From a virus (Duplodnaviria; Heunggongvirae; Uroviricota; Caudoviricetes), in IMG/VR virus record IMGVR_UViG_2718218402_000003: 33,125 bases of DNA, one strand, 5' to 3'. The notes under the pieces were generated by a model that saw only the letters and a list, made by a program, of their open reading frames with translations, searched no databases and was not told the origin of the DNA. Positions within the stretch are counted from its first letter, which is position 1. Every line of letters starts with the position of its first letter. Made by a program: the position numbers and the translations under genes. Positions 3,000 through 31,844 of the stretch are shown piece by piece.

Positions 3000-3088
3000 A
3001 CCACCGGAATAACCTTCTGCTCCGGCCTGGTGCTTTCACCACGCCACTTTTCCATTTTTCATCTCTGCATATCAGGAAAACCTTCAGT

Positions 3089-9759: not shown

Positions 9760-10160
9760 TTCCTCCCCCTTGACTAATTCATTAACACATAAACTTTGTA
9801 GTGCACGGACTAAATTGCCTTTCTGGCTTCATCACTGACAATTTTTCTGTTATTGACTATTCCTAATATAGTAGGAAAGTTCTTTAAGTGATCGGTCGTA
9901 CTCATCTATCTTTCATACTTACTCTCAACTATCAAAAGTACAGGATTTATTATGAAGTTATGGCCTGTGTTGACTGGCATTGCACTCTCTTTCACTCTTA
10001 TAGCATGTAAGGCCCCGACACCACCTAAAGGTGTGCAGCCGATTACAAATTTTGACGCCAACCGCTACCTCGGAAAATGGTATGAAATAGCTCGCTGATC
10101 TTACCCAGCAATAGTGGACACGCGGCTAAGTGAGTAAACTCTCAGTCAGAGGTGACTCAC

Positions 10161-10460
10161 ATGACAAAAACAGTATCAACCAGTAAAAAACCCCGTAAAC
10201 AGCATTCGCCTGAATTTCGCAGTGAAGCCCTGAAGCTTGCTGAACGCATCGGTGTTACTGCCGCAGCCCGTGAACTCAGCCTGTATGAATCACAGCTCTA
10301 CAACTGGCGCAGTAAACAGCAAAATCAGCAGACGTCTTCTGAACGTGAACTGGAGATGTCTACCGAGATTGCACGTCTCAAACGCCAGCTGGCAGAACGG
10401 GATGAAGAGCTGGCTATCCTCCAAAAGGCCGCGACATACTTCGCGAAGCGCCTGAAATGA
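10161..10460 (+). CDS. insE: IS3 OrfA (InsE-like)
   Basis: 99 aa from ATG 10161; HTH plus leucine-zipper-like region. Confidence 0.85.
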
Positions 10461-11323
10461 AGTATGTCTTTATTGAAAAACATCAGGCTGAGTTCAGCAT
10501 CAAAGCAATGTGCCGCGTGCTCCGGGTGGCCCGCAGCGGCTGGTATACGTGGTGTCAGCGGCGGACAAGGATAAGCACGCGTCAGCAGTTCCGCCAACAC
10601 TGCGACAGCGTTGTCCTCGCGGCTTTTACCCGGTCAAAACAGCGTTACGGTGCCCCACGCCTGACGGATGAACTGCGTGCTCAGGGTTACCCCTTTAACG
10701 TAAAAACCGTGGCGGCAAGCCTGCGCCGTCAGGGACTGAGGGCAAAGGCCTCCCGGAAGTTCAGCCCGGTCAGCTACCGCGCACACGGCCTGCCTGTGTC
10801 AGAAAATCTGTTGGAGCAGGATTTTTACGCCAGTGGCCCGAACCAGAAGTGGGCAGGAGACATCACGTACTTACGTACAGATGAAGGCTGGCTGTATCTG
10901 GCAGTGGTCATTGACCTGTGGTCACGTGCCGTTATTGGCTGGTCAATGTCGCCACGCATGACGGCGCAACTGGCCTGCGATGCCCTGCAGATGGCGCTGT
11001 GGCGGCGTAAGAGGCCCCGGAACGTTATCGTTCACACGGACCGTGGAGGCCAGTACTGTTCAGCAGATTATCAGGCGCAACTGAAGCGACATAATCTGCG
11101 TGGAAGTATGAGCGCAAAAGGTTGCTGCTACGATAATGCCTGCGTGGAAAGCTTCTTTCATTCGCTGAAAGTGGAATGTATCCATGGAGAACACTTTATC
11201 AGCCGGGAAATAATGCGGGCAACGGTGTTTAATTATATCGAATGTGATTACAATCGGTGGCGGCGGCACAGTTGGTGTGGCGGCCTCAGTCCGGAACAAT
11301 TTGAAAACCAGAACCTCGCTTAG
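10457..11323 (+). CDS. insF: IS3 OrfB transposase (InsF-like, DDE catalytic domain)
   Basis: 288 aa in the -1 frame relative to orfA with TGA/ATG overlap; matches IS3 InsF as I recall it. Confidence 0.9.
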
Positions 11324-11765
11324 GCCTGTGTCCATATTACGTGGGTAGGATCACGCCTCGAGAACTGGTTCGAACGTGGTCTGGAACAGGTCAGCGCTAC
11401 TTATGAAAAACGGAACGACGGAGGGATTCGCGTACTTAACCGTGGATACGATCCAACGAAAAACAAATGGAGCGAGAGCGAAGGTAAAGCATACTTTACT
11501 GGAGATACTAAAACTGCAGCGTTGAAAGTTTCGTTTTTTGGCCCCTTCTATGGTGGCTATAATGTAATCAAACTGGATGATGAGTATAAGTATGCTCTTG
11601 TCAGTGGTCCGAACAGAGAATACCTATGGATTCTGGCAAGGACCCAAACTATTCCAGATAATGTAAAAGCAGACTATGTGCGTACCGCTCAAAAGTTGGG
11701 ATTCAATGTCAATGAACTATTATGGGTTAAACAATAAAATCCCCACCCGAAATGATACTTATTAG

Positions 11766-14075: not shown

Positions 14076-14231
14076 TTACTCCTCAGGTTCGTAAGCTGTG
14101 AAGACAGCGACCTCCGTCTGGCCGGTTCGGATTCGTACCTCGCAGAGGTCTTTCCTCGTTACCAGTGCCGTCACTATGACGGTTAAACAGATGACGATCA
14201 GGGCGATTAACATCGCCTTTTGCTGCTTCAT
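14076..14231 (-). CDS. hokD: Hok/Gef-family type I toxin (HokD/RelF-like)
   Basis: 51 aa MKQQKAMLIALIVICLTVIVTALVTRKDLCEVRIRTGQTEVAVFTAYEPEE; AAGGAGAAG Shine-Dalgarno before ATG 14231; the track ORF extends upstream in frame. Confidence 0.85.
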   Translation of the reverse strand: MKQQKAMLIALIVICLTVIVTALVTRKDLCEVRIRTGQTEVAVFTAYEPEE

Positions 14232-14906
14232 AGCCTGCTTCTCCTTGCCTTTCGGCACGTAAGAGGCTAACCTAGATTTGCCGTTCATAGATTGAGCCTC
14301 AGATTAATGTTAAGCGTCTTGCAGGACGCGTAATGTTAACTGGGGCTTTTCTCTATCTGCCGTTGGTGTTCATGCCTGAGACAGATAGCCTCAAGCACCC
14401 GCAGCCATTCTACTTAACTCCCGTCACCTCGCCAATATGAAATCAGTCAGAAAGGCGATCCATAAGAACAACAGCAAGGCAATAAATTGCCATTACAGCA
14501 GCAATAGCCAGCGCACATTTGAGAACCAGCACCACAACCTCCTGTATTGGACGTACACCAGTCCTGATAAATATGAGGCTGTCTCGTCAGTGATTCAATA
14601 CAACTATTGGGTATAGTTTCTGTGATTTTGTTCTGTAGAAATGGAACACAACAACCAGTCACCACCAGCACTTCTTTAAATACGCCAAGTCCGACGCAAG
14701 CTAACCTTCTAGGCCGCTTTGAGCGAAGAGCGGACGCTCGCATCTGTCCCAACACACTGAGGGCTTCACGAACACCTAGGTGTACTCGTCAACTGGGAAA
14801 AAGTCAGATTATCTGTAAGCGTACAGCCTGAACCGTCTGGTCAGAATCTGACGAATTAGACAAAGTGGTGTCCACCAAATAAGTAGTGGGAACCAAAGTA
14901 TCAGAT

Positions 14907-15287
14907 ATGCAGAAAAATGTGACTCCCGGCAGGCGAAAAGGCTGCCCTAATTATCCTCCCGAATTTAAACAGCAGCTCGTTGCTGCCTCCTGTGAACCCG
15001 GGATATCCATCTCAAAACTTGCTCTTGAAAATGGCATTAACGCCAATCTGTTGTTCAAATGGCGACAACAATGGCGCGAGGGAAAGCTGCTATTACCTTC
15101 TTCAGAGAGCCCCCAGCTACTTCCTGTGACTCTCGATGCAGCTGCCGAACAGCCAGAATCGCTCGCAGAGGACCCGGAAACCCTCAGTATCAGCTGTGAG
15201 GTAACGTTCCGGCACGGGACGCTCCGCTTCAATGGCAATGTCAGCGAAAAGCTCCTGACTCTGCTGATACAGGAACTGAAGCGATGA
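14907..15287 (+). CDS. IS66-family TnpA (orf1)
   Basis: ATG at 14907 (MQKNVTPGRRKG...); the track start at 14886 is a GTG. Confidence 0.8.
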   Translation: MQKNVTPGRRKGCPNYPPEFKQQLVAASCEPGISISKLALENGINANLLFKWRQQWREGKLLLPSSESPQLLPVTLDAAAEQPESLAEDPETLSISCEVTFRHGTLRFNGNVSEKLLTLLIQELKR

Positions 15288-15631
15288 TCCCGTTACCTTC
15301 CGGGACCAAAATTTGGCTGGTTGCCGGTATCACCGATATGAGAAATGGCTTCAACGGCCTGGCTGCGAAAGTACAAACGGCGCTGAAAGACGATCCCATG
15401 TCCGGCCATGTTTTCATTTTCCGGGGCCGCAGCGGCAGTCAGGTTAAACTGCTGTGGTCCACCGGTGACGGACTGTGCCTCCTGACCAAACGGCTGGAGC
15501 GTGGGCGCTTCGCCTGGCCGTCAGCCCGTGATGGCAAAGTGTTCCTTACGCAGGCGCAGCTGGCGATGCTGCTGGAAGGTATCGACTGGCGACAGCCTAA
15601 GCGGCTGCTGACCTCCCTGACCATGCTGTAA
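15284..15631 (+). CDS. IS66-family TnpB (orf2)
   Basis: 115 aa, overlapping tnpA stop; characteristic IS66 orf2. Confidence 0.85.
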
Positions 15632-15680
15632 ATCTCTTTATCCTGGTTGTCACAGAATAAGCCCGGTAAAATACGGGCTT

Positions 15681-17219
15681 ATGAACGACATCTCTTCTGA
15701 CGACATCTTCCTGCTGAAACAGCGCCTGGCCGAACAGGAAGCGCTGATCCACGCCCTGCAGGAAAAGCTGAGCAACCGGGAGCGCGAAATAGACCATCTG
15801 CAGGCGCAGCTGGATAAACTCCGCCGGATGAACTTCGGCAGTCGTTCCGAAAAAGTCTCCCGCCGTATCGCACAAATGGAAGCCGATCTGAACCGGCTTC
15901 AGAAAGAGAGCGATACGCTGACTGGTAGGGTGTATGACCCGGCAGTACAGCGTCCGTTGCGTCAGACCCGCACCCGTAAGCCGTTCCCTGAATCACTACC
16001 CCGTGACGAAAAGCGACTGTTGCCTGCGGCGCCGTGCTGCCCGAACTGCGGCGGTTCACTGAGCTATCTGGGCGAGGATACCGCCGAACAGCTGGAGTTG
16101 ATGCGTAGCGCCTTCCGGGTTATCCGGACGGTACGGGAAAAACATGCCTGTACTCAGTGCGATGCCATCGTGCAGGCACCTGCACCTTCGCGGCCCATCG
16201 AGCGGAGTATCGCCGGACCGGGGCTGCTGGCCCGCGTGCTGACCTCGAAGTATGCAGAGCACACCCCGCTGTATCGCCAGTCAGAAATATACGGCCGGCA
16301 AGGTGTGGAGCTGAGGCGTTCACTGCTGTCGGGCTGGGTGGATGCATGCTGCCGGCTGCTGTCTCCGCTGGAAGAGGCGCTTCATGGCTATGTCATGACT
16401 GACGGCAAACTCCATGCCGATGATACCCCGGTCCAGGTACTGCTGCCGGGTAATAAGAAGACGAAGACCGGGCGGTTGTGGGCGTATGTTCGTGATGACC
16501 GCAATGCAGGGTCAGCGTTGGCACCTGCAGTGTGGTTCGCTTACAGCCCGGACAGAAAAGGCATCCATCCGCAGACTCATCTTGCCTGCTTCAGCGGTGT
16601 GCTGCAAGCGGATGCGTACGCCGGGTTCAACGAGCTGTATCGCAATGGTGGGATAACGGAAGCTGCCTGCTGGGCTCATGCCCGCCGAAAGATCCACGAT
16701 GTGCACGTCCGCATCCCGTCAGCACTGACGGAAGAAGCCCTGGAGCAGATCGGTCAGTTGTACGCCATAGAGGCGGATATAAGGGGAATGCCGGCAGAGC
16801 AGCGGCTTGCTGAACGTCAGCGAAAAACGAAACCGTTGTTGAAATCCCTGGAAAGCTGGTTGCGTGAAAAGATGAAGACCCTGTCGCGACACTCAGAGTT
16901 GGCGAAGGCGTTCGCGTACGCACTTAACCAGTGGCCGGCACTGACGTACTATGCGAACGATGGCTGGGTGGAAATCGACAACAACATCGCTGAAAATGCC
17001 CTGCGGGCGGTCAGTCTGGGTCGTAAAAACTTCCTGTTCTTCGGCTCTGACCATGGTGGTGAGCGGGGAGCGCTACTGTACAGCCTGATCGGGACGTGCA
17101 AACTGAATGACGTGGATCCAGAAAGCTACCTTCGCCATGTGCTTGGCGTCATAGCAGACTGGCCGGTCAACCGGGTCAGCGAACTGCTTCCGTGGCGCAT
17201 AGCACTGCCAGCTGAATAA
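15681..17219 (+). CDS. IS66-family transposase TnpC
   Basis: 512 aa with N-terminal leucine zipper, CxxC...CxxC zinc finger and DDE region. Confidence 0.9.
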
Positions 17220-17280
17220 CACATCCCCGTCAATACGGCCCTCGCTGTACGCTTACGATTATCTGCGTAAGTTTCAGCGT

Positions 17281-17308
17281 AAAAATTGGGCACTATAAAA
17301 GTGCCCAA
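17281..17308 (-). terminator. Rho-independent terminator of the large NTPase gene
   Basis: TTGGGCAC-tataaaa-GTGCCCAA hairpin followed on the minus strand by TTTTT; 22 nt downstream of the stop at 17330. Confidence 0.55.
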
Positions 17309-17329
17309 ACTGTAGAAAAATACATAATG

Positions 17330-20300
17330 CTATGTATCTGAGCCAAACATAGAGCGCCGCCTTGTTATTTTATAATAAGTGGGATTTTCATTATCCACCT
17401 CAAAATCAGAGAAGAAGTGGTTATCTCTTAATGCTGTTAATAAACTTTGATTAGTTGAATCAACTTCAATTTTAGGTTTGCCTCGCCCCAAAATTTTACT
17501 GAACTCCGATAAACCAAGCAGATCAAGATACTCTTTGCAAGTCGTCTTACTCAAATCCTTACCCGGCAACAAAGCGATTAGCAGTGCTATTTTATTCTGC
17601 ATATTCAGTCCCTCTGCGACAAACAGGTTTTTTAGTAACGGTTCAGAAACATCATTAGGACTTGCTATCAATGCTGATATATCCTGTATTGCTCGACTCA
17701 AGATGAGCGACTGAGTAGAGGTTCCCCAAGTTTTATAAGATGACGTCAAGATTAGAAGTTCATCTGGTTTAAAATTATTTTCTAAAATATAGTCATTAAC
17801 GACCTGAGAGTAATTCTTACTATAAATAGCCAACGGAGTTTTAACAAACTCGAGTAGCTTAACTTTCAAATCATCATCAACTTTCCAAGAAAGTATTGAT
17901 ATAGCCTCATCCAAAATAAAGTTATCAATCGTCATTAATTCAACGTATGCCCTGATATTCTTATGAATATAATAGGAAAGTTGCTCTGAATAGTTATCTC
18001 GTATGAAATTAAGTGGCGCAACATTCATACGAATAATATTTTTATCCACTAATATTTTGAACTTATCACTCGCGATATTACTAGCGCTAAAGGATGTTTT
18101 ACAAATAATATTTAGTGAGCAAATTAATTTTTCATATTTATCATTTGATAAATCATTACAGATAACAATCGATTTAAATAATTTACCTTTAAGCTCGTTA
18201 TCAATATTAATATTTTGAAAATTCAGGTCTACATCAGTTCTATTGATAAATTCGATAAGTGAGTCATCCAGTCCATCAACATGTTCAAAATAAGAGACAA
18301 TATTTTCCTCAGAGCACACTGCTCTATCTTTATCCAACAAAGATGACCATAAAGATTCGCTCTCAACCTCACTCAGAGATGTCACGAAAGTTTGCAAAGC
18401 GTTTATATACTGGCCTTTTTGTTCATCAGATATTCCCTCATTATTAAGAACGGATAAAACAATGGATTCATCATCCACGATTGAACCATCACAACTAGAT
18501 AAAACCATATCCAGATAGTCCCTAATATGGTTATTAACATAACTAGCCAAGGGAGAATCAGGTTGTGACATCACTAGTGTATAGTTCTTATGGCGAATAT
18601 CATCTTCACTATTAAGCGTGTAAACCTTACTCAGCATTAAGGTCAGGTTGGAAAAATTAATATCATAAAGTGAATGCTGGTAAACCGCATCAAAGAGTAC
18701 TTTATTTGCGTTTTCAAATTTAATACTGACAAAAGAAACGTTAAGCAACTTAAAACCACTAATTAATTTGTCAACCTTCGGTTCTGATATTGCTAAATAA
18801 CCTGCCGAATCAGAGATGTAATCAGTCAGACAATCATCAATATTAATGGCCTCGATGGCGTCATTGGCAGAATAATAAAACGTGCCTATAGAGTAGAGTT
18901 TAACCCAATCAGCAGAAAATTCACTCTCTGTCAGCGCATAAGAAAAAAACTCAGGCCACTGTGTATTTAATCGATTAATGAAGACAGGCTGAGCCCTCTC
19001 AGTTTCAAAGTAACCACGAATAAACTCAACTCTTCTATCTTTTCTTAGTTGTTTGAATAAACGTTTTATTAAGTTTACCTGGGCTGGCGTTTGAAGCAGA
19101 TAAGCTAATAAATCAAAATTAAGCGCCTCTTCCTGTTCAAAATCCACTTCTCGAAGGCGGGCAACGACCAGCTTGGGGTTCTTGAGTTGATAAGTGAACT
19201 CTTTGCCTTTTTGATCGGTAATGCTGCGTAAAAACATCTTATCAATTCGACTCAGGCTATTTTCATAAAAATAGGTCATATAGTCGGTATAGGTTTCATC
19301 AATATAACCATCACGAATAAGGTATTTAAGCAAGTCAAAATACTCACTGCTTTTTATTTCATTAAAGTCTCTTTCCTCTCCAATTTCATTGGTATAGGTG
19401 AGTTTAAATATTTCATCAATGTTTTCTCTAGTTATTACTTCTTTAAGTCTTTTGTTTCTAGAATCAACCAAACTTTCTCTTGATCTTGATATAAGCTCAT
19501 TAATTTCTTCTATTTTACCATTAAATTTATTTTCAACACTTTCTTTTCTAGCCGCCCTTCTCTTTGCTATATCAGCTTTCTCAGCCTGATTATAGTGAGG
19601 ATGATTATTATATCTAGATAATTCCTTATCGTATATAGCATCAACCTCCTGACTAGAGTTGAGTATTTCATCATTGATTGCCTCAATCTCTTTTTTTCTA
19701 TCTCTAATATCTTTTTCTATTTTCTTTATTTCTTCAATAATAAGGTTGTCTTTTTCACTAAATATGGTATAAACCATACCTTGATTAAGTTGCAACTCAC
19801 TAAAATCTCTTGGGAAAATATTCTTATAGGCAATAATGGCCAACATTTTATTACAGTCAAGTTCTGTCGTGTTTAATTTGTTATAATAAATTTGAAATTC
19901 GTTATAAATATTCTTCAATATTCTCATATCATCAATATATAAAGACATCCCTTGTAGAAATCTTTCATTGAACAACTTGAGAATACCACCACCATCAAAA
20001 TGTGTGATAAACTGATCGTAAGAGTTAGAACTATCAACAACAGGAATAACTGGAATGATATAATCAAAGAATTTGGTTCTATCCTTCGAAATGAAGATAT
20101 CATCACGAAGCAAGTAAATAAAACGTAACGTCGATTTCTTGTGCCCTGCTGTGTCCCGTTGAATATTAACCAGTCTGTTAACCTCATGAAGACGTTCAAA
20201 GATGTTATTACTATTAAAACGGTCCATGTCTTCAAAAACAATGGCATCAGCATCAACGTTCTCGAAAAGGTACAATACTTCATTTAAATATCTATCGAAA

Positions 20301-20962
20301 TAAGACTCGTTACTTTCTTCAAAAATCTCTATTTCATTACCCTGTAAATTTATTTTCTTAAGAACATTACGATTCTTTTGGGTTTTTATTAACTTGTAAA
20401 TGAAAATACAAGATAGGATAGTACATATAAACCCACTAATTAAAAGCGTATCGTATTTAGTTGATAATGTAAGTAGTGTCTTTATATTACCTTCAGATAA
20501 AAGTGAAACAAACTTTTCCCACTTATTAAATAGCGTGATATGTAGTATCATAGCGATAAATAACACCGTAAAGATGGTGTTTATCACAATGTTGTTAGTT
20601 TTTATTTTTTTCTTTACTTTAAAATGTGTCTGGGGAATATCATCAGCATTAATTTGGTGAATTAACTGGTTAAGAACTTTACCTTCTAACGCGGTTTCAT
20701 TTATATCTTTACTTGGTTCATTAGTTTCAGCTTCCTCAATCGATCTGAAATGAGCAAGTGAGATATGAACAAACTTTATATTTGAATGACTTTTCTTATA
20801 GGATTCGATAAGACTACTTTTTCCTGCGCTATATTGCCCTGATATCGCAACATTTTTTAGATCGTTATTGGCAAAAACAAAATCTATCGCATTTTTATAT
20901 ACACCCAGCTCAACATCGCTGAACGGCGTTAACTTTTGAAATTTATAGCTATCATCACTCAT
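17330..20962 (-). CDS. Large (1210 aa) membrane-inserted P-loop NTPase, KAP/YobI-like; candidate stand-alone phage-defence or abortive-infection protein
   Basis: Walker A GQYSAGKS (aa 42-49, nt about 20816-20839), two predicted TM helices (aa about 125-145 and 172-192) between Walker A and Walker B IVFEDMD (aa 241-247); coiled-coil-like segment aa about 400-500; about 950 aa of unassigned C-terminal sequence; strongly AT-rich by eye; SD GGAAGGGA upstream; own terminator. CDS is certain, function is inferred. Confidence 0.6.
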   Translation of the reverse strand: MSDDSYKFQKLTPFSDVELGVYKNAIDFVFANNDLKNVAISGQYSAGKSSLIESYKKSHSNIKFVHISLAHFRSIEEAETNEPSKDINETALEGKVLNQLIHQINADDIPQTHFKVKKKIKTNNIVINTIFTVLFIAMILHITLFNKWEKFVSLLSEGNIKTLLTLSTKYDTLLISGFICTILSCIFIYKLIKTQKNRNVLKKINLQGNEIEIFEESNESYFDRYLNEVLYLFENVDADAIVFEDMDRFNSNNIFERLHEVNRLVNIQRDTAGHKKSTLRFIYLLRDDIFISKDRTKFFDYIIPVIPVVDSSNSYDQFITHFDGGGILKLFNERFLQGMSLYIDDMRILKNIYNEFQIYYNKLNTTELDCNKMLAIIAYKNIFPRDFSELQLNQGMVYTIFSEKDNLIIEEIKKIEKDIRDRKKEIEAINDEILNSSQEVDAIYDKELSRYNNHPHYNQAEKADIAKRRAARKESVENKFNGKIEEINELISRSRESLVDSRNKRLKEVITRENIDEIFKLTYTNEIGEERDFNEIKSSEYFDLLKYLIRDGYIDETYTDYMTYFYENSLSRIDKMFLRSITDQKGKEFTYQLKNPKLVVARLREVDFEQEEALNFDLLAYLLQTPAQVNLIKRLFKQLRKDRRVEFIRGYFETERAQPVFINRLNTQWPEFFSYALTESEFSADWVKLYSIGTFYYSANDAIEAINIDDCLTDYISDSAGYLAISEPKVDKLISGFKLLNVSFVSIKFENANKVLFDAVYQHSLYDINFSNLTLMLSKVYTLNSEDDIRHKNYTLVMSQPDSPLASYVNNHIRDYLDMVLSSCDGSIVDDESIVLSVLNNEGISDEQKGQYINALQTFVTSLSEVESESLWSSLLDKDRAVCSEENIVSYFEHVDGLDDSLIEFINRTDVDLNFQNINIDNELKGKLFKSIVICNDLSNDKYEKLICSLNIICKTSFSASNIASDKFKILVDKNIIRMNVAPLNFIRDNYSEQLSYYIHKNIRAYVELMTIDNFILDEAISILSWKVDDDLKVKLLEFVKTPLAIYSKNYSQVVNDYILENNFKPDELLILTSSYKTWGTSTQSLILSRAIQDISALIASPNDVSEPLLKNLFVAEGLNMQNKIALLIALLPGKDLSKTTCKEYLDLLGLSEFSKILGRGKPKIEVDSTNQSLLTALRDNHFFSDFEVDNENPTYYKITRRRSMFGSDT

Positions 20963-21824: not shown

Positions 21825-22814
21825 TTACCCCCTGAAGCCCGGCGGAATTTCGGTATCCGGCTCAGAAATATGATTCACACAACGCTGTACAGACGAACGC
21901 CCCAGGCGGATAACCAGTTCATCCCATTTTTCGCGAAGCTTTGACGGACTCATGATATTTTTTACCCAGAATGGATCCCGCTGCACCCGACCAAACATTT
22001 CACAAATTTGTCTGTGAGTTCTGCCATCCAGCATCCGCATTGTGCGCACGTCGTTGGCCCATGCGGTCCAGTTGGGTTCTTTCGGTCGCGAAATCTCGCC
22101 ATCATCGCTGGCGGCCTGCTCGTAAAGACTCACGATTCGCCCCCAGATCCACTGCGCACACGCCAAATCTTCCTGGCTGCCCCACTGGCGTTTTTTCGCA
22201 CTGAACACAACCGCGTCAGGGTGTCGGGTTAAAAAATCCTGTTCAACCGTCTGCGGGTCCGGTTGCGAAGCTTCCGGACGAGAAGTCTTTTTATTCTCTG
22301 TAGTAATCTCTGTTGTATTCTCTGTAGTAATCTCTGTTGTATTCTCTGTAAGATCATCAGGCCATTTTGACCCGATGACATTGAGTCGTTTTGAACCAAT
22401 GGAGCGTTTCATTTTGACCTCTTCCATCGTGTCATTTTGACCTGATGGAGCGGCGCATTTTAAACCGATGGATTCGCTCAATTTGCCACCATCTAAAAGC
22501 TCGCTCCCGTAGTTGATCGTGTAGAAATTGGTCATATCGCGCTTTGATTTATTGAGCTTTTCACAACGCAAAAGCCCCAGCGTTTTCAGACTTGCAAACG
22601 CGCGCTTTAACGTTGACTCTGACCAGAATGGGAACTGTTCCAGCCATTGTTCCGTTGTGTTATAAATCCAGCGAACACCATCACATTCCATGCCGGAGTT
22701 GGTATCTCTCAACCAGTAGTGCAGTTGTTGCAAAACAATGGCTTCGTTTAAGCCAATTTTCATTGCCAGCTGCGTGTTTATAACCAGTGGGCGTTCAGCA
22801 AAAAGAAGACTCAT
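21825..22814 (-). CDS. Phage replication initiation protein (replisome-organiser-like) with internal ori iterons
   Basis: HTH-like N-terminal domain (LAMKIGLNEAIVLQQLHYWL); tandem DNA repeats inside the ORF; position downstream of cro-like and cII-position genes. Start taken at the internal ATG 22814 to avoid overlapping the YdaT-like gene. Confidence 0.5.
   Translation of the reverse strand: MSLLFAERPLVINTQLAMKIGLNEAIVLQQLHYWLRDTNSGMECDGVRWIYNTTEQWLEQFPFWSESTLKRAFASLKTLGLLRCEKLNKSKRDMTNFYTINYGSELLDGGKLSESIGLKCAAPSGQNDTMEEVKMKRSIGSKRLNVIGSKWPDDLTENTTEITTENTTEITTENKKTSRPEASQPDPQTVEQDFLTRHPDAVVFSAKKRQWGSQEDLACAQWIWGRIVSLYEQAASDDGEISRPKEPNWTAWANDVRTMRMLDGRTHRQICEMFGRVQRDPFWVKNIMSPSKLREKWDELVIRLGRSSVQRCVNHISEPDTEIPPGFRG
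22293..22494. repeat. Iteron-like direct-repeat array (candidate origin of replication) within the replication gene
   Basis: 2.4 copies of the 24-bp unit ATTCTCTGTAGTAATCTCTGTTGT (22293-22351), then about 6 degenerate CATTTTGACC-N-GATGG-like repeats at roughly 23-24-bp spacing (22363-22494). Confidence 0.6.
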
Positions 22815-23316
22815 AATTCCATCCAGCTTTTTGTTGGTATTGCTGTCGATACGCAAGCTTGAAAGCAATTGCTTTTTCTATAAGTTCGTCAGTTTCACGA
22901 TCTACAACGGCAGGATCTGCAAAAAGCAGTCCGGATTCCACCACATCGCCATATTCTTTATTTAACCCGGCGATCATGTACGTAATACTTTTTCCATCAC
23001 TGATCTCACGATACAACCTGAAATCACTAATCCGGATAGCCTCCATAATCGCAGGCACTAGCGCCGTGAACTTTTCACGCTTATCCCTGGTGTCGATAGC
23101 CTTCCAGCGTTCGAATATCTTCACTCGATTAACGCCAAGCGCTCGCTGATCAACCGCGCCACCTTCATCTGTGACACGCTGAACATCGATGTTCGGGCGC
23201 TCTTTCAAAGCCCAGAATGCTTCAGTGATTAATATCGTCGCCTGCTCCTGTGTCATTCCTGGTCGACATATCCAGGCATCCAGAGCCTCACGAGCCTGTT
23301 CAGGAGTGATTTTCAT
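22795..23316 (-). CDS. YdaT-like protein (cII-position gene of Rac/Qin-type prophages)
   Basis: 173-aa ORF directly downstream of the cro-like dicC; pattern resembles Rac YdaT as recalled. Confidence 0.5.
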   Translation of the reverse strand: MKITPEQAREALDAWICRPGMTQEQATILITEAFWALKERPNIDVQRVTDEGGAVDQRALGVNRVKIFERWKAIDTRDKREKFTALVPAIMEAIRISDFRLYREISDGKSITYMIAGLNKEYGDVVESGLLFADPAVVDRETDELIEKAIAFKLAYRQQYQQKAGWNYESSFC

Positions 23317-25665: not shown

Positions 25666-27116
25666 AACAGTTCCGTAATAAATATCCGGTTTCATTCTTA
25701 TATGCCAGCAATGGCAGGGATTTGTTCATCCTTAAATCTGTCATGAGGTTAAAACAAATGAGTAAAGTCTTTATTTGCGCCGCTATTCCTGACGAACTGG
25801 CAACAAGGGAAGAAGGCGCTGTGGCTGTAGCCACAGCCATTGAAGCTGGCGACGAACGCCGTGCTCGAGCAAAATTTCACTGGCAATTCCTGGAACATTA
25901 TCCGGCTGCTCAGGACTGCGCTTATAAATTTATTGTCTGCGAGGATAAACCTGGCATACCCCGCCCTGCCCTCGATTCATGGGATGCTGAATATATGCAG
26001 GAAAACCGCTGGGATGAGGAGTCTGCTTCTTTTGTCCCGGTTGAGACTGAATCCGATCCGATGAACGTCACTTTTGACAAGCTGGCCCCTGAAGTACAGA
26101 ACGCTGTCATGGTTAAGTTCGACACATGTGAAAAAATCACCGTTGATATGGTTATTAGCGCACAGGAATTGTTGCAGGAAGACATGGCAACATTCGACGG
26201 ACATATCGTTGAAGCGTTGATGAAAATGCCAGAAGTTAACGCCATGTATCCGGAGCTTAAGTTGCACGCCATTGGGTGGGTTAAGCATAAATGTATTCCT
26301 GGTGCTAAATGGCCCGAAATTCAGGCAGAGATGCGCATCTGGAAAAAACGTCGCGAAGGTGAACGCAAGGAAACCGGAAAATACACGTCTGTTGTTGATC
26401 TCGCCCGCGCCAGAGCCAATCAACAGTACACTGAAAATTCAACAGGAAAAATCAGCCCGGTCATTGCTGCCATTCATCGCGAATACAAGCAGACATGGAA
26501 AACACTGGATGACGAACTGGCCTACGCTCTCTGGCCTGGTGATGTGGATGCTGGAAACATTGACGGCAGCATCCATCGCTGGGCAAAAAAAGAAGTTATC
26601 GACAACGACCGCGAAGACTGGAAGCGTATCTCGGCATCAATGCGCAAACAGCCTGATGCCCTTCGCTACGACCGCCAAACTATTTTTGGCCTTGTCCGTG
26701 AGCGTCCGATCGACATTCACAAAGATCCCGTAGCACTGAACAAATATATCTGCGAATACCTGACGACAAAGGGCGTGTTTGAGAATGAAGAAACAGACCT
26801 GAGCACTGTTGATGTTCTCCAGTCATCAGAAACACAAACTGATGCAGTGGAAACTGAGGTATCTGATATCCCAAAAAATGAAACCGCGCCGGAAGCTGAA
26901 CCATCTGTAGAGCGTGAGGGGCCGTTCTATTTCCTCTTCGCAGATAAGGACGGAGAAAAATACGGTCGCGCAAACAAACTTTCTGGTCTGGATAAGGCAC
27001 TGGCTGCTGGCGCCACTGAAATCACAAAAGAAGAATATTTTGCCCGAAAAAATGGCACATACTGAACCGCCCCGGGAATCCTGGAGACTAAACTCCCTGA
27101 GAAAGAGGTAAACAGG

Positions 27117-27443
27117 ATGACTAAAAATACACGTTTTTCCCCCGAGGTCCGTCAACGGGCAGTTCGTATGGTTCTGGAAAGTCAGGGCGAATATGACTCA
27201 CAATGGGCGGCAATTTGTTCCATTGCCCCAAAGATTGGCTGTACGCCAGAGACTCTGCGAGTGTGGGTTCGTCAGCATGAACGGGATACCAGGAGTGGTG
27301 ATAGTGGACTCACCACCGCTGAACGTCAGCGTCTGAAAGAGCTGGAACGTGAAAATCGTGAACTGCGCCGCAGTAACGATATCCTTCGCCAGGCTTCCGC
27401 TTATTTTGCGAAGGCGGAGTTCGACCGCCTCTGGAAAAAATAA
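27117..27443 (+). CDS. IS629-like OrfA
   Basis: 108 aa [22 protein letters not shown]... Confidence 0.85.
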
Positions 27444-28330
27444 TGCCACTGCTGGATAAGCTGCGTGAGCAGTACGGGGTCGGACCGGTATGCAGTGAAC
27501 TGCATATTGCCCCGTCAACGTATTACCACTGTCAGCAACAGCGACATCATCCTGATAAACGTAGTGCCCGTGCGCAGCGCGATGACTGGCTGAAGAGAGA
27601 GATACAGCGCGTATACGATGAAAATCATCAGGTGTACGGTGTGCGTAAAGTCTGGCGCCAGTTGTTACGCGAAGGTATCAGGGTGGCCAGATGTACAGTG
27701 GCGCGCCTCATGGCGGTTATGGGACTTGCCGGTGTTCTCCGGGGTAAAAAGGTCCGTACTACCGTCAGCCGGAAAGCCGTTTCCGCAGGCGACCGCGTAA
27801 ACCGTCAGTTCGTGGCAGAACGTCCTGACCAGCTGTGGGTGGCTGATTTTACTTACGTCAGCACATGGCAGGGCTTCGTCTATGTGGCGTTCATCATTGA
27901 TGTGTTTGCCGGATGCATCGTGGGGTGGCGAGTCTCATCGTCTATGGAAACGACATTCGTGCTGGATGCACTGGAGCAGGCGTTGTGGGCCCGTCGGCCG
28001 TCCGGCACAGTCCATCACAGTGATAAAGGTTCTCAGTATGTATCACTGGCCTATACGGAGCGACTAAAAGAAGCAAAACTGCTGGCATCAACAGGGAGTA
28101 CAGGTGACTCGTATGACAACGCGATGGCGGAGAGCATCAATGGTCTTTACAAAGCGGAGGTAATACACCGTAAGAGCTGGAAAAACCGTGCAGAAGTGGA
28201 ACTGGCCACACTCACGTGGGTGGACTGGTATAACAATCGACGATTGCTGGGAAGGCTGGGTCATATCCCTCCGGCAGAAGCAGAAAAAGCTTATTATGCT
28301 TCCATCAGAAACGATGATCTGGCAGCCTGA
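27443..28330 (+). CDS. IS629-like OrfB transposase (DDE)
   Basis: 295 aa in the -1 frame relative to orfA (TAATG overlap). Confidence 0.9.
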   Translation: MPLLDKLREQYGVGPVCSELHIAPSTYYHCQQQRHHPDKRSARAQRDDWLKREIQRVYDENHQVYGVRKVWRQLLREGIRVARCTVARLMAVMGLAGVLRGKKVRTTVSRKAVSAGDRVNRQFVAERPDQLWVADFTYVSTWQGFVYVAFIIDVFAGCIVGWRVSSSMETTFVLDALEQALWARRPSGTVHHSDKGSQYVSLAYTERLKEAKLLASTGSTGDSYDNAMAESINGLYKAEVIHRKSWKNRAEVELATLTWVDWYNNRRLLGRLGHIPPAEAEKAYYASIRNDDLAA

Positions 28331-29614
28331 GTTCACAGATAAAACACTCTCCAGGAAAACCGGGGCGGTTCATACACGGGCTTACCGCAAAATGTAGATA
28401 CCGCTGAAGATTCAGAACAACCAGAGCCGATAAAAGTTACCGCTGACGAAGTAAACAAAATTATGCAGGCAGCCAATATCAGCCAGCCTGACGCCGATAA
28501 GTTGCTTGCTGCATCACGTGGTGAATTTGTTGAAGGGATTAGTGACCCGAATGATCCGAAATGGGTTAAGGGGATCCAGACCCGCGATTCTGTGAACCAG
28601 AACCAGCATGAATCGGAACGGAACTACCAAAAAGCGGAACAAAACAGTCCAAATGCGTTACAAAACGAGCCAGAAACGAAACAGCCTGAACCAGTGGCGC
28701 AACAGGAAGTGGAAAAAGTCTGCACCGCCTGCGGTCAGACCGGCGGCGGCAACTGCCCTGATTGTGGCGCGGTGATGGGCGACGCAACATACCAAGAAAC
28801 ATTCGATGAAGAGTATCAGGTTGAAGTTCAGGAAGATGATCCGGAGGAAATGGAAGGCGCTGAACATCCACACAAGGAGAACACTGGCGGCAATCAGCAT
28901 CACAATAGCGATAATGAAACTGGCGAGACGGCAGATCACCCAATTAAGGTGAACGGTCATCACGAAATCACATCCACCAGCAGGACGTGTGACCATCTAA
29001 TGATCGACCTTGAAACCATGGGAAAAAATCCTGATGCCCCGATCATCTCAATAGGTGCAATATTTTTCGATCCGCAAACCGGAGATATGGGACCGGAATT
29101 TAGTAAGACTATCGATCTGGAAACTGCTGGCGGAGTCATTGATCGGGACACCATTAAATGGTGGCTTAAGCAATCACGCGAAGCGCAATCTGCCATTATG
29201 ACCGATGAAATCCCGTTAGATGATGCACTGTTACAATTGCGGGAATTTATCGACGAAAACTCCGGTAAATTTTTTGTTCAGGTTTGGGGAAATGGAGCCA
29301 ACTTCGACAACACGATTTTGCGCCGTTCATACGAACGGCAGGGGATCCCCTGCCCGTGGCGTTACTACAACGATCGCGATGTACGCACAATCGTTGAGCT
29401 GGGGAAAGCCATAGACTTCGATGCCAGAACGGCTATTCCATTCGAAGGTGAGCGCCATAATGCACTTGATGACGCCCGTTACCAGGCAAAATACGTTTCA
29501 GTTATCTGGCAAAAACTGATCCCGAGTCAGGCTGATTCTTAATGTTCAACTGTCGCCGGTTGTGACTGGTATTCTGCAACCGGCGCTCGTCTGATGTAAG
29601 AGATAAAGAAATCG

Positions 29615-29905
29615 ATGAGCGAAGTAATCATGATTGTCTCTCCCGGCAAATGGGTATCCGAAGAGCAGTTAATTGCGCTGAAAGGAATAAAAAAAGGTAC
29701 GTTAAAAAAGGCCCGGGAAAAATCGTTTATGGAAGGAAGGGAATATAAGCATGTCGCTCATGACGGTATGCCATGGGATAACAGTCCATGCTTTTACAAC
29801 CTGGAAGAAATTGATCGCTGGATTGAGCGCCAGGCATCAGCGAGACCAAGAGTAACCGGCTCATTTAAACCGTCTGGTCTGTTTCCTCCGGCTCTACAAA
29901 AATAA
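29615..29905 (+). CDS. Excisionase-like protein (putative Xis)
   Basis: 96-aa ORF between the exonuclease and int; assignment by position and size only; its 3' end abuts an IS remnant. Confidence 0.4.
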   Translation: MSEVIMIVSPGKWVSEEQLIALKGIKKGTLKKAREKSFMEGREYKHVAHDGMPWDNSPCFYNLEEIDRWIERQASARPRVTGSFKPSGLFPPALQK

Positions 29906-30582
29906 TGTCCATCATTTTTAATGGACACTATCGTATGAAACACCGGACCTGGATCACTGAAGCTTTACGTCTTCACTTTGAAGAACATTTACCCCGGGTT
30001 GTGGCCGGGCGTCGCCTGGGTGTACCAAAATCAACAGTTTGTAGTATGTTCGTGCGCTTTCGGAGAGCTGGCCTTTCGTGGCCTTTGCCCGCAGGCATGT
30101 CGGAGCAGGAACTTGATGCCTGCCTTTACGGACAATTTTCCACGGTACCAGTCGTACGTCCTGAAAGCACCGTTATATCCGAAGCCCCCGTGGTAAAAAA
30201 ACGTCCCCGGCGGCCCAACTTCCCTTATGAGTTTAAAATCGCCTTAGTGGAGCAGTCACTGCAGCCCGGAGCCTGTGTGGCGCAGATCGCCCGGGAAAAC
30301 GGAATCAACGATAACCTGCTCTTCAACTGGCGCCATCAATACCGGAAAGGTGGCCTGCTGCCTTCCGGAAAAAATATGCCGGCACTGCTTCCCGTGACGT
30401 TAACGCCGGAGCCGGATAATAAAATCCCGGCCCCCGCACAGGAACCAGAGCAGATAAATACACCGTCCGACAGTCTGTGTTGTGAGCTGATTCTGCCGGC
30501 CGGAACTCTCAGGCTTAAAGGTAAACTGACGCCGGCGTTATTACAGACACTTATCCGCGAAATGAAAGGGAGCAGCCACTGA
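29905..30582 (+). CDS. Chimeric ORF: unidentified HTH-like N-terminus fused to an IS66-family TnpA homologue
   Basis: C-terminal part (from about aa 95: [20 protein letters not shown]...[16 protein letters not shown]...) parallels TnpA at 14907-15287; N-terminal part ([11 protein letters not shown]...) does not. Confidence 0.45.
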
Positions 30583-31787
30583 TGATATCTCTCCCTGCCG
30601 GTTCTCTGGGATGTGATGTGTCAGAGCAACTGGAGCTTATCAGCAGCGCCTTTAAGGTTATCGAAACACAACGTCCGAAACTGGCCTGTTGCCGGTGCGA
30701 CCATATCGTGCAGGCACCGGTGCCTTCAAAACCCATTGCACGCAGTTATGCCGGAGCGGGGCTCCTGGCCCATGTCGTCACCGGAAAATATGCAGACCAT
30801 CTGCCGTTATACCGCCAGTCAGAGATATACCGCCGTCAGGGTGTGGAGCTGAGCCGTGCCACACTGGGGCGCTGGACTGGTGCCGTTGCTGAACTACTGG
30901 AGCCGCTGTATGACGTCCTGCGCCAGTATGTGCTGATGCCCGGTAAAGTCCATGCTGATGATATCCCCGTCCCGGTCCAGGAGCCGGGCAGCGGTAAAAC
31001 CCGGACAGCCCGGCTGTGGGTCTACGTCCGTGATGACCGTAACGCCGGTTCACAGATGCCCCCGGCGGTCTGGTTCGCGTACAGTCCGGACCGGAAAGGT
31101 ATCCATCCACAAAATCACCTGGCCGGTTACAGCGGTGTGCTTCAGGCCGATGCTTACGGTGGTTACCGGGCGTTATACGAATCCGGCAGAATAACGGAAG
31201 CCGCGTGTATGGCTCATGCCCGGAGAAAAATCCACGATGTGCATGCAAGAGCGCCCACCGACATCACCACGGAAGCCCTGCAGCGTATCGGTGAACTGTA
31301 TGCCATCGAGGCAGAGGTCCGGGGCTGTTCAGCAGAACAGCGTCTGGCGGCAAGAAAAACCAGAGCCGCGCCACTGATGCAGTCACTGTATGACTGGATA
31401 CAGCAACAGATGAAAACACTGTCGCGTCACTCAGATACGGCAAAAGCGTTCGCATACCTGCTGAAACAGTGGGATGCACTGAACGTGTACTGCAGTAATG
31501 GCTGGGTGGAAATCGACAACAACATCGCAGAGAACGCCTTACGGGGAGTGGCCGTAGGCCGGAAAAACTGGATGTTCGCGGGTTCCGACAGCGGTGGTGA
31601 ACATGCGGCGGTGTTGTACTCGCTGATCGGCACATGCCGTCTGAACAATGTGGAGCCAGAAAAGTGGCTGCGCTACGTCATTGAACATATCCAGGACTGG
31701 CCGGCAAACCGGGTACGCGATCTGTTGCCCTGGAAAGTTGATCTGAGCTCTCAGTAAATATCAATACGGTTCTGACGAGCCGCTTAC
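30140..31787 (+). mobile_element. Defective IS66-family element (internal deletion; left end degenerate)
   Basis: Right IR ...CAATACGGTTCTGACGAGCCGCTTAC ending 31787; left-IR-like sequence only partially recognisable around 30136-30170; tnpB and the 5' third of tnpC are absent. Left boundary is approximate. Confidence 0.55.
30582..31757 (+). CDS. N-terminally truncated IS66-family transposase (tnpB-start/tnpC fusion)
   Basis: 391 aa; MISLPAGS resembles the TnpB start MIPLPSGT; from [16 protein letters not shown] it aligns to TnpC residues about 128-512 of the intact copy. Confidence 0.8.
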
Positions 31788-31844
31788 GACCAAGACGTCA
31801 TCTTACTTGACTAAAAGCCACACTAACTAATGAGAGAAGTTGAA

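Follow-up and report, generated by a model that had tools for sequence, protein, structure and literature searches.

A complete, apparently functional ISEc8 copy between genes of a Qin-like lambdoid prophage of Escherichia coli

The founding members of the IS66 family of insertion sequences, IS66 and IS679, have been studied experimentally (Machida 1984; Han et al. 2001; cited in PMC6778807), and an 8-bp duplication of the target is the rule in the family (PMC6778807). Inverted repeats that start with GTAAGCG, together with a layout of three ORFs, have been published for the IS66-family element ISPsko1 (PMC12888890). ISEc8, which is multicopy in the chromosomes of E. coli O157:H7 and is also carried on pO157-like plasmids, has been found inserted in stx2a in O157 (PMC5359411, PMC12711010) and has been credited with small structural polymorphisms in O157 (PMC12711010). 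Here we describe a 2442-bp IS66-family element that spans positions 14815-17256 (+ strand) of a 33,125-nucleotide stretch of DNA, which we refer to as the window. Like IS66 and IS679, this element has the tnpA-tnpB-tnpC layout, inverted repeats starting with GTAA, and an 8-bp duplication; at the sequence level, however, IS66 and IS679 are different elements from ISEc8, the name that we assign to the element in the window. Almost certainly, the locus records a transposition event in which one complete, apparently functional ISEc8 copy landed between genes of a chromosomal Qin-like lambdoid prophage of E. coli.

A first-pass annotation of the window had placed a complete IS66-family element at 14815-17256. 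Our coordinates agree, and both ends and three full-length ORFs are present. The element starts with GTAAGCGTACAGC... at 14815 and finishes with ...GCTGTACGCTTAC at 17256. Its left terminal inverted repeat (IRL; GTAAGCGTACAGCCTGAACCGT, 14815-14836, + strand) and its right terminal inverted repeat (IRR; ...ACGGCCCTCGCTGTACGCTTAC, 17235-17256, - strand) form the top-ranked and longest inverted pair returned by the repeat finder (22 nt, 82% complementary). The GTAAGCG repeats that had been claimed for both ends are of the IS66 type, with the length (about 15-30 bp) and the 5'-GTAA(G/C)CG start found in the family, though they are imperfect: 18 of 22 bases match, the first 13 nt are perfect, and both begin with GTAAGCGTACAGC. 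On either side of the element lies GATTATCT, the 8-bp target-site duplication expected of an IS66-family insertion, at 14807-14814 on the left and at 17257-17264 on the right. In the 33-kb window, GATTATCT occurs on the + strand at these two places only.

Profile searches indicate that the element carries a full set of transposition genes. The first, tnpA (14907-15287, + strand), encodes a 126-aa helix-turn-helix accessory protein (Pfam HTH_Tnp_1, E = 1.6e-12) and has the same start codon as in the RefSeq annotation of identical copies (WP_001171554.1). The second, tnpB (15284-15631, + strand), encodes a 115-aa accessory protein (Pfam TnpB_IS66, E = 1.2e-38; NCBIfam IS66_TnpB, 120 bits with a cut-off of 50) identical to that of copies annotated as WP_000612591.1; this is TnpB of the IS66 type (PF05717), unrelated to the TnpB of IS605. 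The third, tnpC (15681-17219, + strand), encodes a 512-aa DDE transposase that is identical to WP_073514543.1 copies and in which Pfam recognizes the LZ_Tnp_IS66, zf-IS66, DDE_Tnp_IS66 and DDE_Tnp_IS66_C domains. The DDE_Tnp_IS66 match (E = 2.3e-106) covers profile positions 1-283 of 284, and the NCBIfam transpos_IS66 model scores 459 bits with a cut-off of 180. The three genes had been described as intact, and we find each of them open and full length with profile scores far above the curated cut-offs. The assignment to the IS66 family likewise holds, given the HTH_Tnp_1 domain, the IS66 TnpB, and the DDE_Tnp_IS66 domain accompanied by zinc finger, leucine zipper and C-terminal domains. The arrangement of the genes is also that of the family: the order is tnpA-tnpB-tnpC, the tnpA stop and tnpB start overlap as ATGA (AAGCGATGATCC at 15279-15290), and a short gap of 49 bp separates tnpB from tnpC. 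The ATGA overlap suggests that tnpA and tnpB may be translationally coupled. A scan with Rfam gave no family match within the element, and we found no solved structures related by sequence to TnpC or TnpB.

By ISfinder convention, an element takes the name of a reference if their nucleotide sequences, compared from end to end, are at least 95% identical. Using megablast, we compared the element with 5426 complete E. coli genomes and found matches in 4230 of them. Identity is 100% (2442/2442) to four plasmid records; the remaining matches listed, mostly from O157:H7 genomes, are 99.9% identical, and in all matches listed RefSeq names the product "IS66-like element ISEc8 family transposase". Based on the RefSeq/PGAP product names and on 99.9-100% identity over 2442 bp to the copies that bear them, including those of many O157:H7 genomes, we conclude that the element is very likely ISEc8. 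Known ISEc8 copies have the same length, the same ends and the same three genes, and in the copies that we compared TnpA and TnpB are identical to those of the window whereas TnpC shows 0 or 1 aa differences. For instance, the window copy shows 0 nt differences from the copy on plasmid p19KM2326_1 and 2 nt differences, one of them non-synonymous, from an O157:H7 chromosomal copy (L004). TnpC has S176 in the window copy and G176 in both L004 and a diverged copy, L002. Relative to known ISEc8, the window copy therefore differs only in its location and in the minor TnpC S176 allele. ISEc8 itself is already known, and what is new here is the insertion site together with a minor lead on target bias.

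Evidence for transposition comes from genomes in which the site is empty. We fused 14315-14814 with 17265-17764 to rebuild the empty site as 1000 bp with a single GATTATCT. This sequence is present at 100% over 1000/1000 bases in 16 E. coli chromosomes, and 18 match at a coverage of at least 80%; in the plasmids searched there was no full site, and the generic hok-side flank alone matches. In one empty-site strain (NZ_CP076272.1, hereafter L001), the uninterrupted string ...AGTCAGATTATCTGCGTAAGTTTC... that the first-pass annotation had predicted is found verbatim. The alignment of L001 to the window runs as far as 14815 and starts again at 17257, and its two pieces overlap by GATTATCT plus one ambiguous G, or 8(+1) bp. 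The flanks are 99.7-99.9% identical between the window and L001 right up to the element ends, and L001 has a clean single GATTATCT with no scar. The perfect 8-bp duplication that had been claimed is thus borne out, being present at both flanks of the element and single in empty-site genomes. An exact 8-mer match precisely at both ends has a chance of about 1.5e-5 (4^-8), a consideration made irrelevant by recovery of the empty site. The empty-site base that follows GATTATCT is G and the first base of the element is also G, so the boundary is formally ambiguous by 1 nt and the duplication is 8 or 9 bp; 8 bp is favoured by the symmetry of the GTAAGCG/CGCTTAC ends and by other copies, whose duplications are of 8 bp. 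The window as a whole is a Qin-like lambdoid prophage, and at the homologous locus of L001 the integrase lies directly beside rspB.

From what is known of the family, the insertion would have arisen as follows. TnpC, the DDE protein, together with the accessory proteins TnpA (helix-turn-helix) and TnpB, would recognize the GTAAGCG... inverted repeats, the element ends would be joined to a target whose strands are cut 8 bp apart, and the GATTATCT duplication would result when these staggered ends are repaired. Han et al. reportedly showed in 2001 that all three ORFs are required in IS679; their result concerns that element and not ISEc8. We found nothing specific in the literature on the mechanism of IS66 transposition, and the family may move either by cut-and-paste or by copy-and-paste.

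The distribution of the occupied and empty sites bears on the age of the insertion. The occupied junction (14415-15214) is covered by 0 of the 5426 complete E. coli genomes and is absent from about 150 fetched genome and metagenome loci. Given that empty sites exist elsewhere and that no occupied junction is shared, the insertion is younger than the common ancestor of the locus in all sampled strains, and it looks private to the source strain. Alternatively, there might have been no transposition in this lineage, the element having been imported along with the prophage DNA around it when that DNA recombined in from an already occupied donor. Prophages of this type are mosaic, and the window differs from L001 at several other places, as such an exchange would allow. 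We nevertheless consider this very improbable, as no donor with the occupied junction is seen among the 5426 complete genomes or the fetched loci and the flanks retain near-identity to the empty-site strain up to the element ends. Recombination would moreover alter only the place of the event, as the duplication and the empty site still prove transposition into this sequence. We therefore keep to transposition of the element itself, and the earlier view that it was recent is supported both by the missing occupied junction and by identical copies at other sites.

These identical copies also speak to whether the element is active. Besides the window's, the exact allele occupies three sites, each with its own perfect 8-bp duplication: next to espT on plasmid p19KM2326_1 (L003; TATCAGCT), between sopA and repE on an F-like plasmid (L034; CCTCAAAT), and inside a tra region (L035; GTACGTCT). 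That the copies at these four sites have not diverged at all is best accounted for if a competent element transposed recently, and we infer that the window copy is apparently functional and potentially active. A different possibility is that the insertion is genuine but the copy is not autonomous, with the G176S change at the start of the TnpC DDE domain crippling the protein and transposase being supplied in trans by another ISEc8. The window copy does differ by this one amino acid from both L004 and L002, its exact allele is rare, with 100% identity in only 4 of the 6709 records that match, and supply in trans is plausible given that, where an E. coli genome has any match to this IS, the median number of matching places is 4. 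However, the same allele sits at four sites on different replicons, a pattern for which competence is the simplest account, and each of the three ORFs is open and, measured against its profile, full length. We judge a crippled copy to be unlikely and regard an autonomous one as the better reading.

To ask where ISEc8 inserts, we collected junctions by exact-match scans with the 39-nt left end, which gave 29 genome loci and 120 metagenome loci. Collapsing near-identical flanks left 94 distinct left junctions (loci L002-L155 and the window). Several positions in these junctions are biased, with chi-square p values from 1e-3 to 1e-11: C at position -10 (44/94), G at -8 (42/94), A/T at -6 (75/94), T at -5 (38 of 94), A or G at -4 (72/94), and A/T at -3 (also 72/94). 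The bias is roughly palindromic, with its centre at the pyrimidine-purine step in the middle of the 8-bp target. In the window, the target CA-GATTATCT fits every biased position and falls at the 99.6th percentile of all window 8-mers when scored with a leave-one-out matrix from the remaining ISEc8 sites of the 94-site set. Both flanks could be read for 12 unique full-length copies recovered elsewhere; perfect 8-bp duplications are found in 8, and the other 4 are presumably rearranged. These data point to a weak but significant preference of ISEc8 for approximately C-N-[G-W-W-T-A-W-N-N], with the pyrimidine-purine step at its centre, a proposal of non-random insertion that in our estimation stands evenly between right and wrong.

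One of the collected copies shares its left flank with the window. In L002 (NZ_CP014583.1), an ISEc8 copy with 12 nt differences lies within the part of another IS66-family tnpC that encodes the zinc finger. Its left flank at 3001-3008 is GATTATCT and its right flank is the unrelated CAACAAAC, leaving it without a duplication; the copy is presumably rearranged. As GATTATCT flanks the L002 copy too, we considered whether the element is in fact 8 bp longer, and rejected this: the empty site contains a single GATTATCT, and the right flank in L002 differs. The coincidence of GATTATCT next to both copies fits the target bias. The left-end scans also returned matches outside E. coli. Those that we take as genuine come from E. 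albertii, from Klebsiella pneumoniae ATCC 13883 and from an Escherichia sp. in which the copies number more than 20. Exact left ends on short contigs (L014, L017 and L027) assigned to Oliverpabstia (a MAG), Streptococcus sanguinis and Corynebacterium (a MAG) most likely reflect E. coli contamination or mis-binning and not host range.

The window holds a second IS66-family element, a deleted copy of ISCro1 at 29852-31787. A perfect 8-bp duplication, GACCAAGA, remains on both sides of it (29844-29851 and 31788-31795), and the comparison with L001 places the copy within the 3' end of the prophage excisionase gene. Full-length ISCro1 is 2699 bp, and the window copy is without 763 bp comprising tnpB and the 5' part of tnpC, retaining a 225-aa TnpA-like ORF and a 391-aa truncated TnpC. 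Unlike the ISEc8 copy in the window, this copy is defective. The TnpC of ISCro1 is 65% identical to that of ISEc8 over 383 aa; the two elements belong to the same family but are different ISs. The ends of ISCro1 are GTAACCG/GTAAGCG, and they have in common with those of ISEc8 a terminal GTAA-CG and a subterminal CCGT block near position 19-22. This pattern is consistent with a bipartite end in which one part may serve cleavage and the other binding.

Members of another family are also present. An IS3-family element that is absent from L001 lies at about 27063-28370 and splits a RecE-like prophage exonuclease gene into segments at 25722-27065 and 28463-29542; it includes an ALIL frameshift pseudoknot (Rfam; 27398-27514) and an IS3 transposase ORF (27443-28330). 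A 1259-bp IS3 copy at 10095-11353 in the window has a 99.8% identical counterpart at 14624-15882 in L001, at a different place and in the opposite orientation; in L001 it interrupts the hok coding region, whereas hok is intact in the window. The segment 21887-24150 of the window is unaligned to L001 and is apparently a replacement, not an IS; the ORFs at 21825-22868 and 22795-23316 (- strand) gave no NCBIfam match.

We next consider the genes on either side of ISEc8. On the right, the gene for a 1210-aa YobI-like P-loop NTPase (17330-20962, - strand; Pfam YobI-ATPase, E = 8.3e-123) is uninterrupted. The N-terminal 430 aa of the protein match the PADLOC model of the Tmn anti-phage defence system (E = 1e-66), and the homologue in L001 is annotated by RefSeq as 'YobI family P-loop NTPase'; we suggest that this is probably a prophage-borne defence gene. 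Hydrophobic stretches in the protein, for example residues ~124-145 and ~175-190, lie inside the region covered by the NTPase profile. A terminator scan places the intrinsic terminator of the NTPase gene at 17276-17308 (- strand), with a stem-loop at 17308-17286 and a T-tail running to 17276. Its stem has 9 pairs, 5 of them G-C, its tail is TTTTTACGCT, and it is unchanged in empty-site genomes. The duplication begins 12 nt past the T-tail and the terminator is intact, as expected from the previous placement of the insertion just downstream of it. On the left, a hok/sok type I toxin-antitoxin locus (14076-14440, - strand; Pfam, Rfam and promoter scan) is likewise uninterrupted, and comprises the hok CDS (14076-14231, - strand; Pfam HOK_GEF, E = 3e-23), the sok/regulatory RNA (14226-14400, - strand; Rfam sok RF01794, 107 bits over the full model) and a hok promoter-like site from the promoter scan (14435-14407, - strand). 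The insertion is about 370 bp upstream of this site. The element lies between the hok locus and the NTPase gene and, as had been noted, separates them.

We found no coding sequence, Rfam element or predicted signal cut by the insertion, and the promoter scan found no outward-facing promoter-like sites at either end of the element. With no gene or recognizable signal broken, the insertion is most likely recent, private to the strain and neutral. It could be otherwise if read-through from tnpC ran antisense into the 3' end of the NTPase gene, or if the 2.4-kb spacer uncoupled hok/sok from upstream transcription, either of which would alter defence or toxin expression. The tnpC and NTPase genes are convergent, the hairpin between them is followed on the + strand by AAACTG and not by a T-run and should therefore terminate poorly in that direction, and ISEc8 is credited with small structural polymorphisms in O157. 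On the other hand, the insertion lies beyond the terminator tail of the NTPase gene and about 370 bp upstream of the hok promoter-like site, it cuts none of the features that we looked for, and it brings no outward promoter-like site. An effect on either neighbour is in our view improbable, and we favour a neutral insertion.

Several consequences follow for this prophage and for the family. The element should be labelled ISEc8, and beyond this annotation the importance of the finding is small. The Tmn/YobI-like NTPase gene and the hok/sok locus are to be treated as intact. The insertion, being absent from every complete E. coli genome searched, can be used as a strain-specific marker, and it adds one more mobile copy able to drive rearrangements in a prophage with three other IS insertions. 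The target preference, if true and not already documented, would be a small new fact about target choice in the IS66 family and, if true, might help explain the build-up of IS66-family elements in AT-rich prophage and plasmid DNA.
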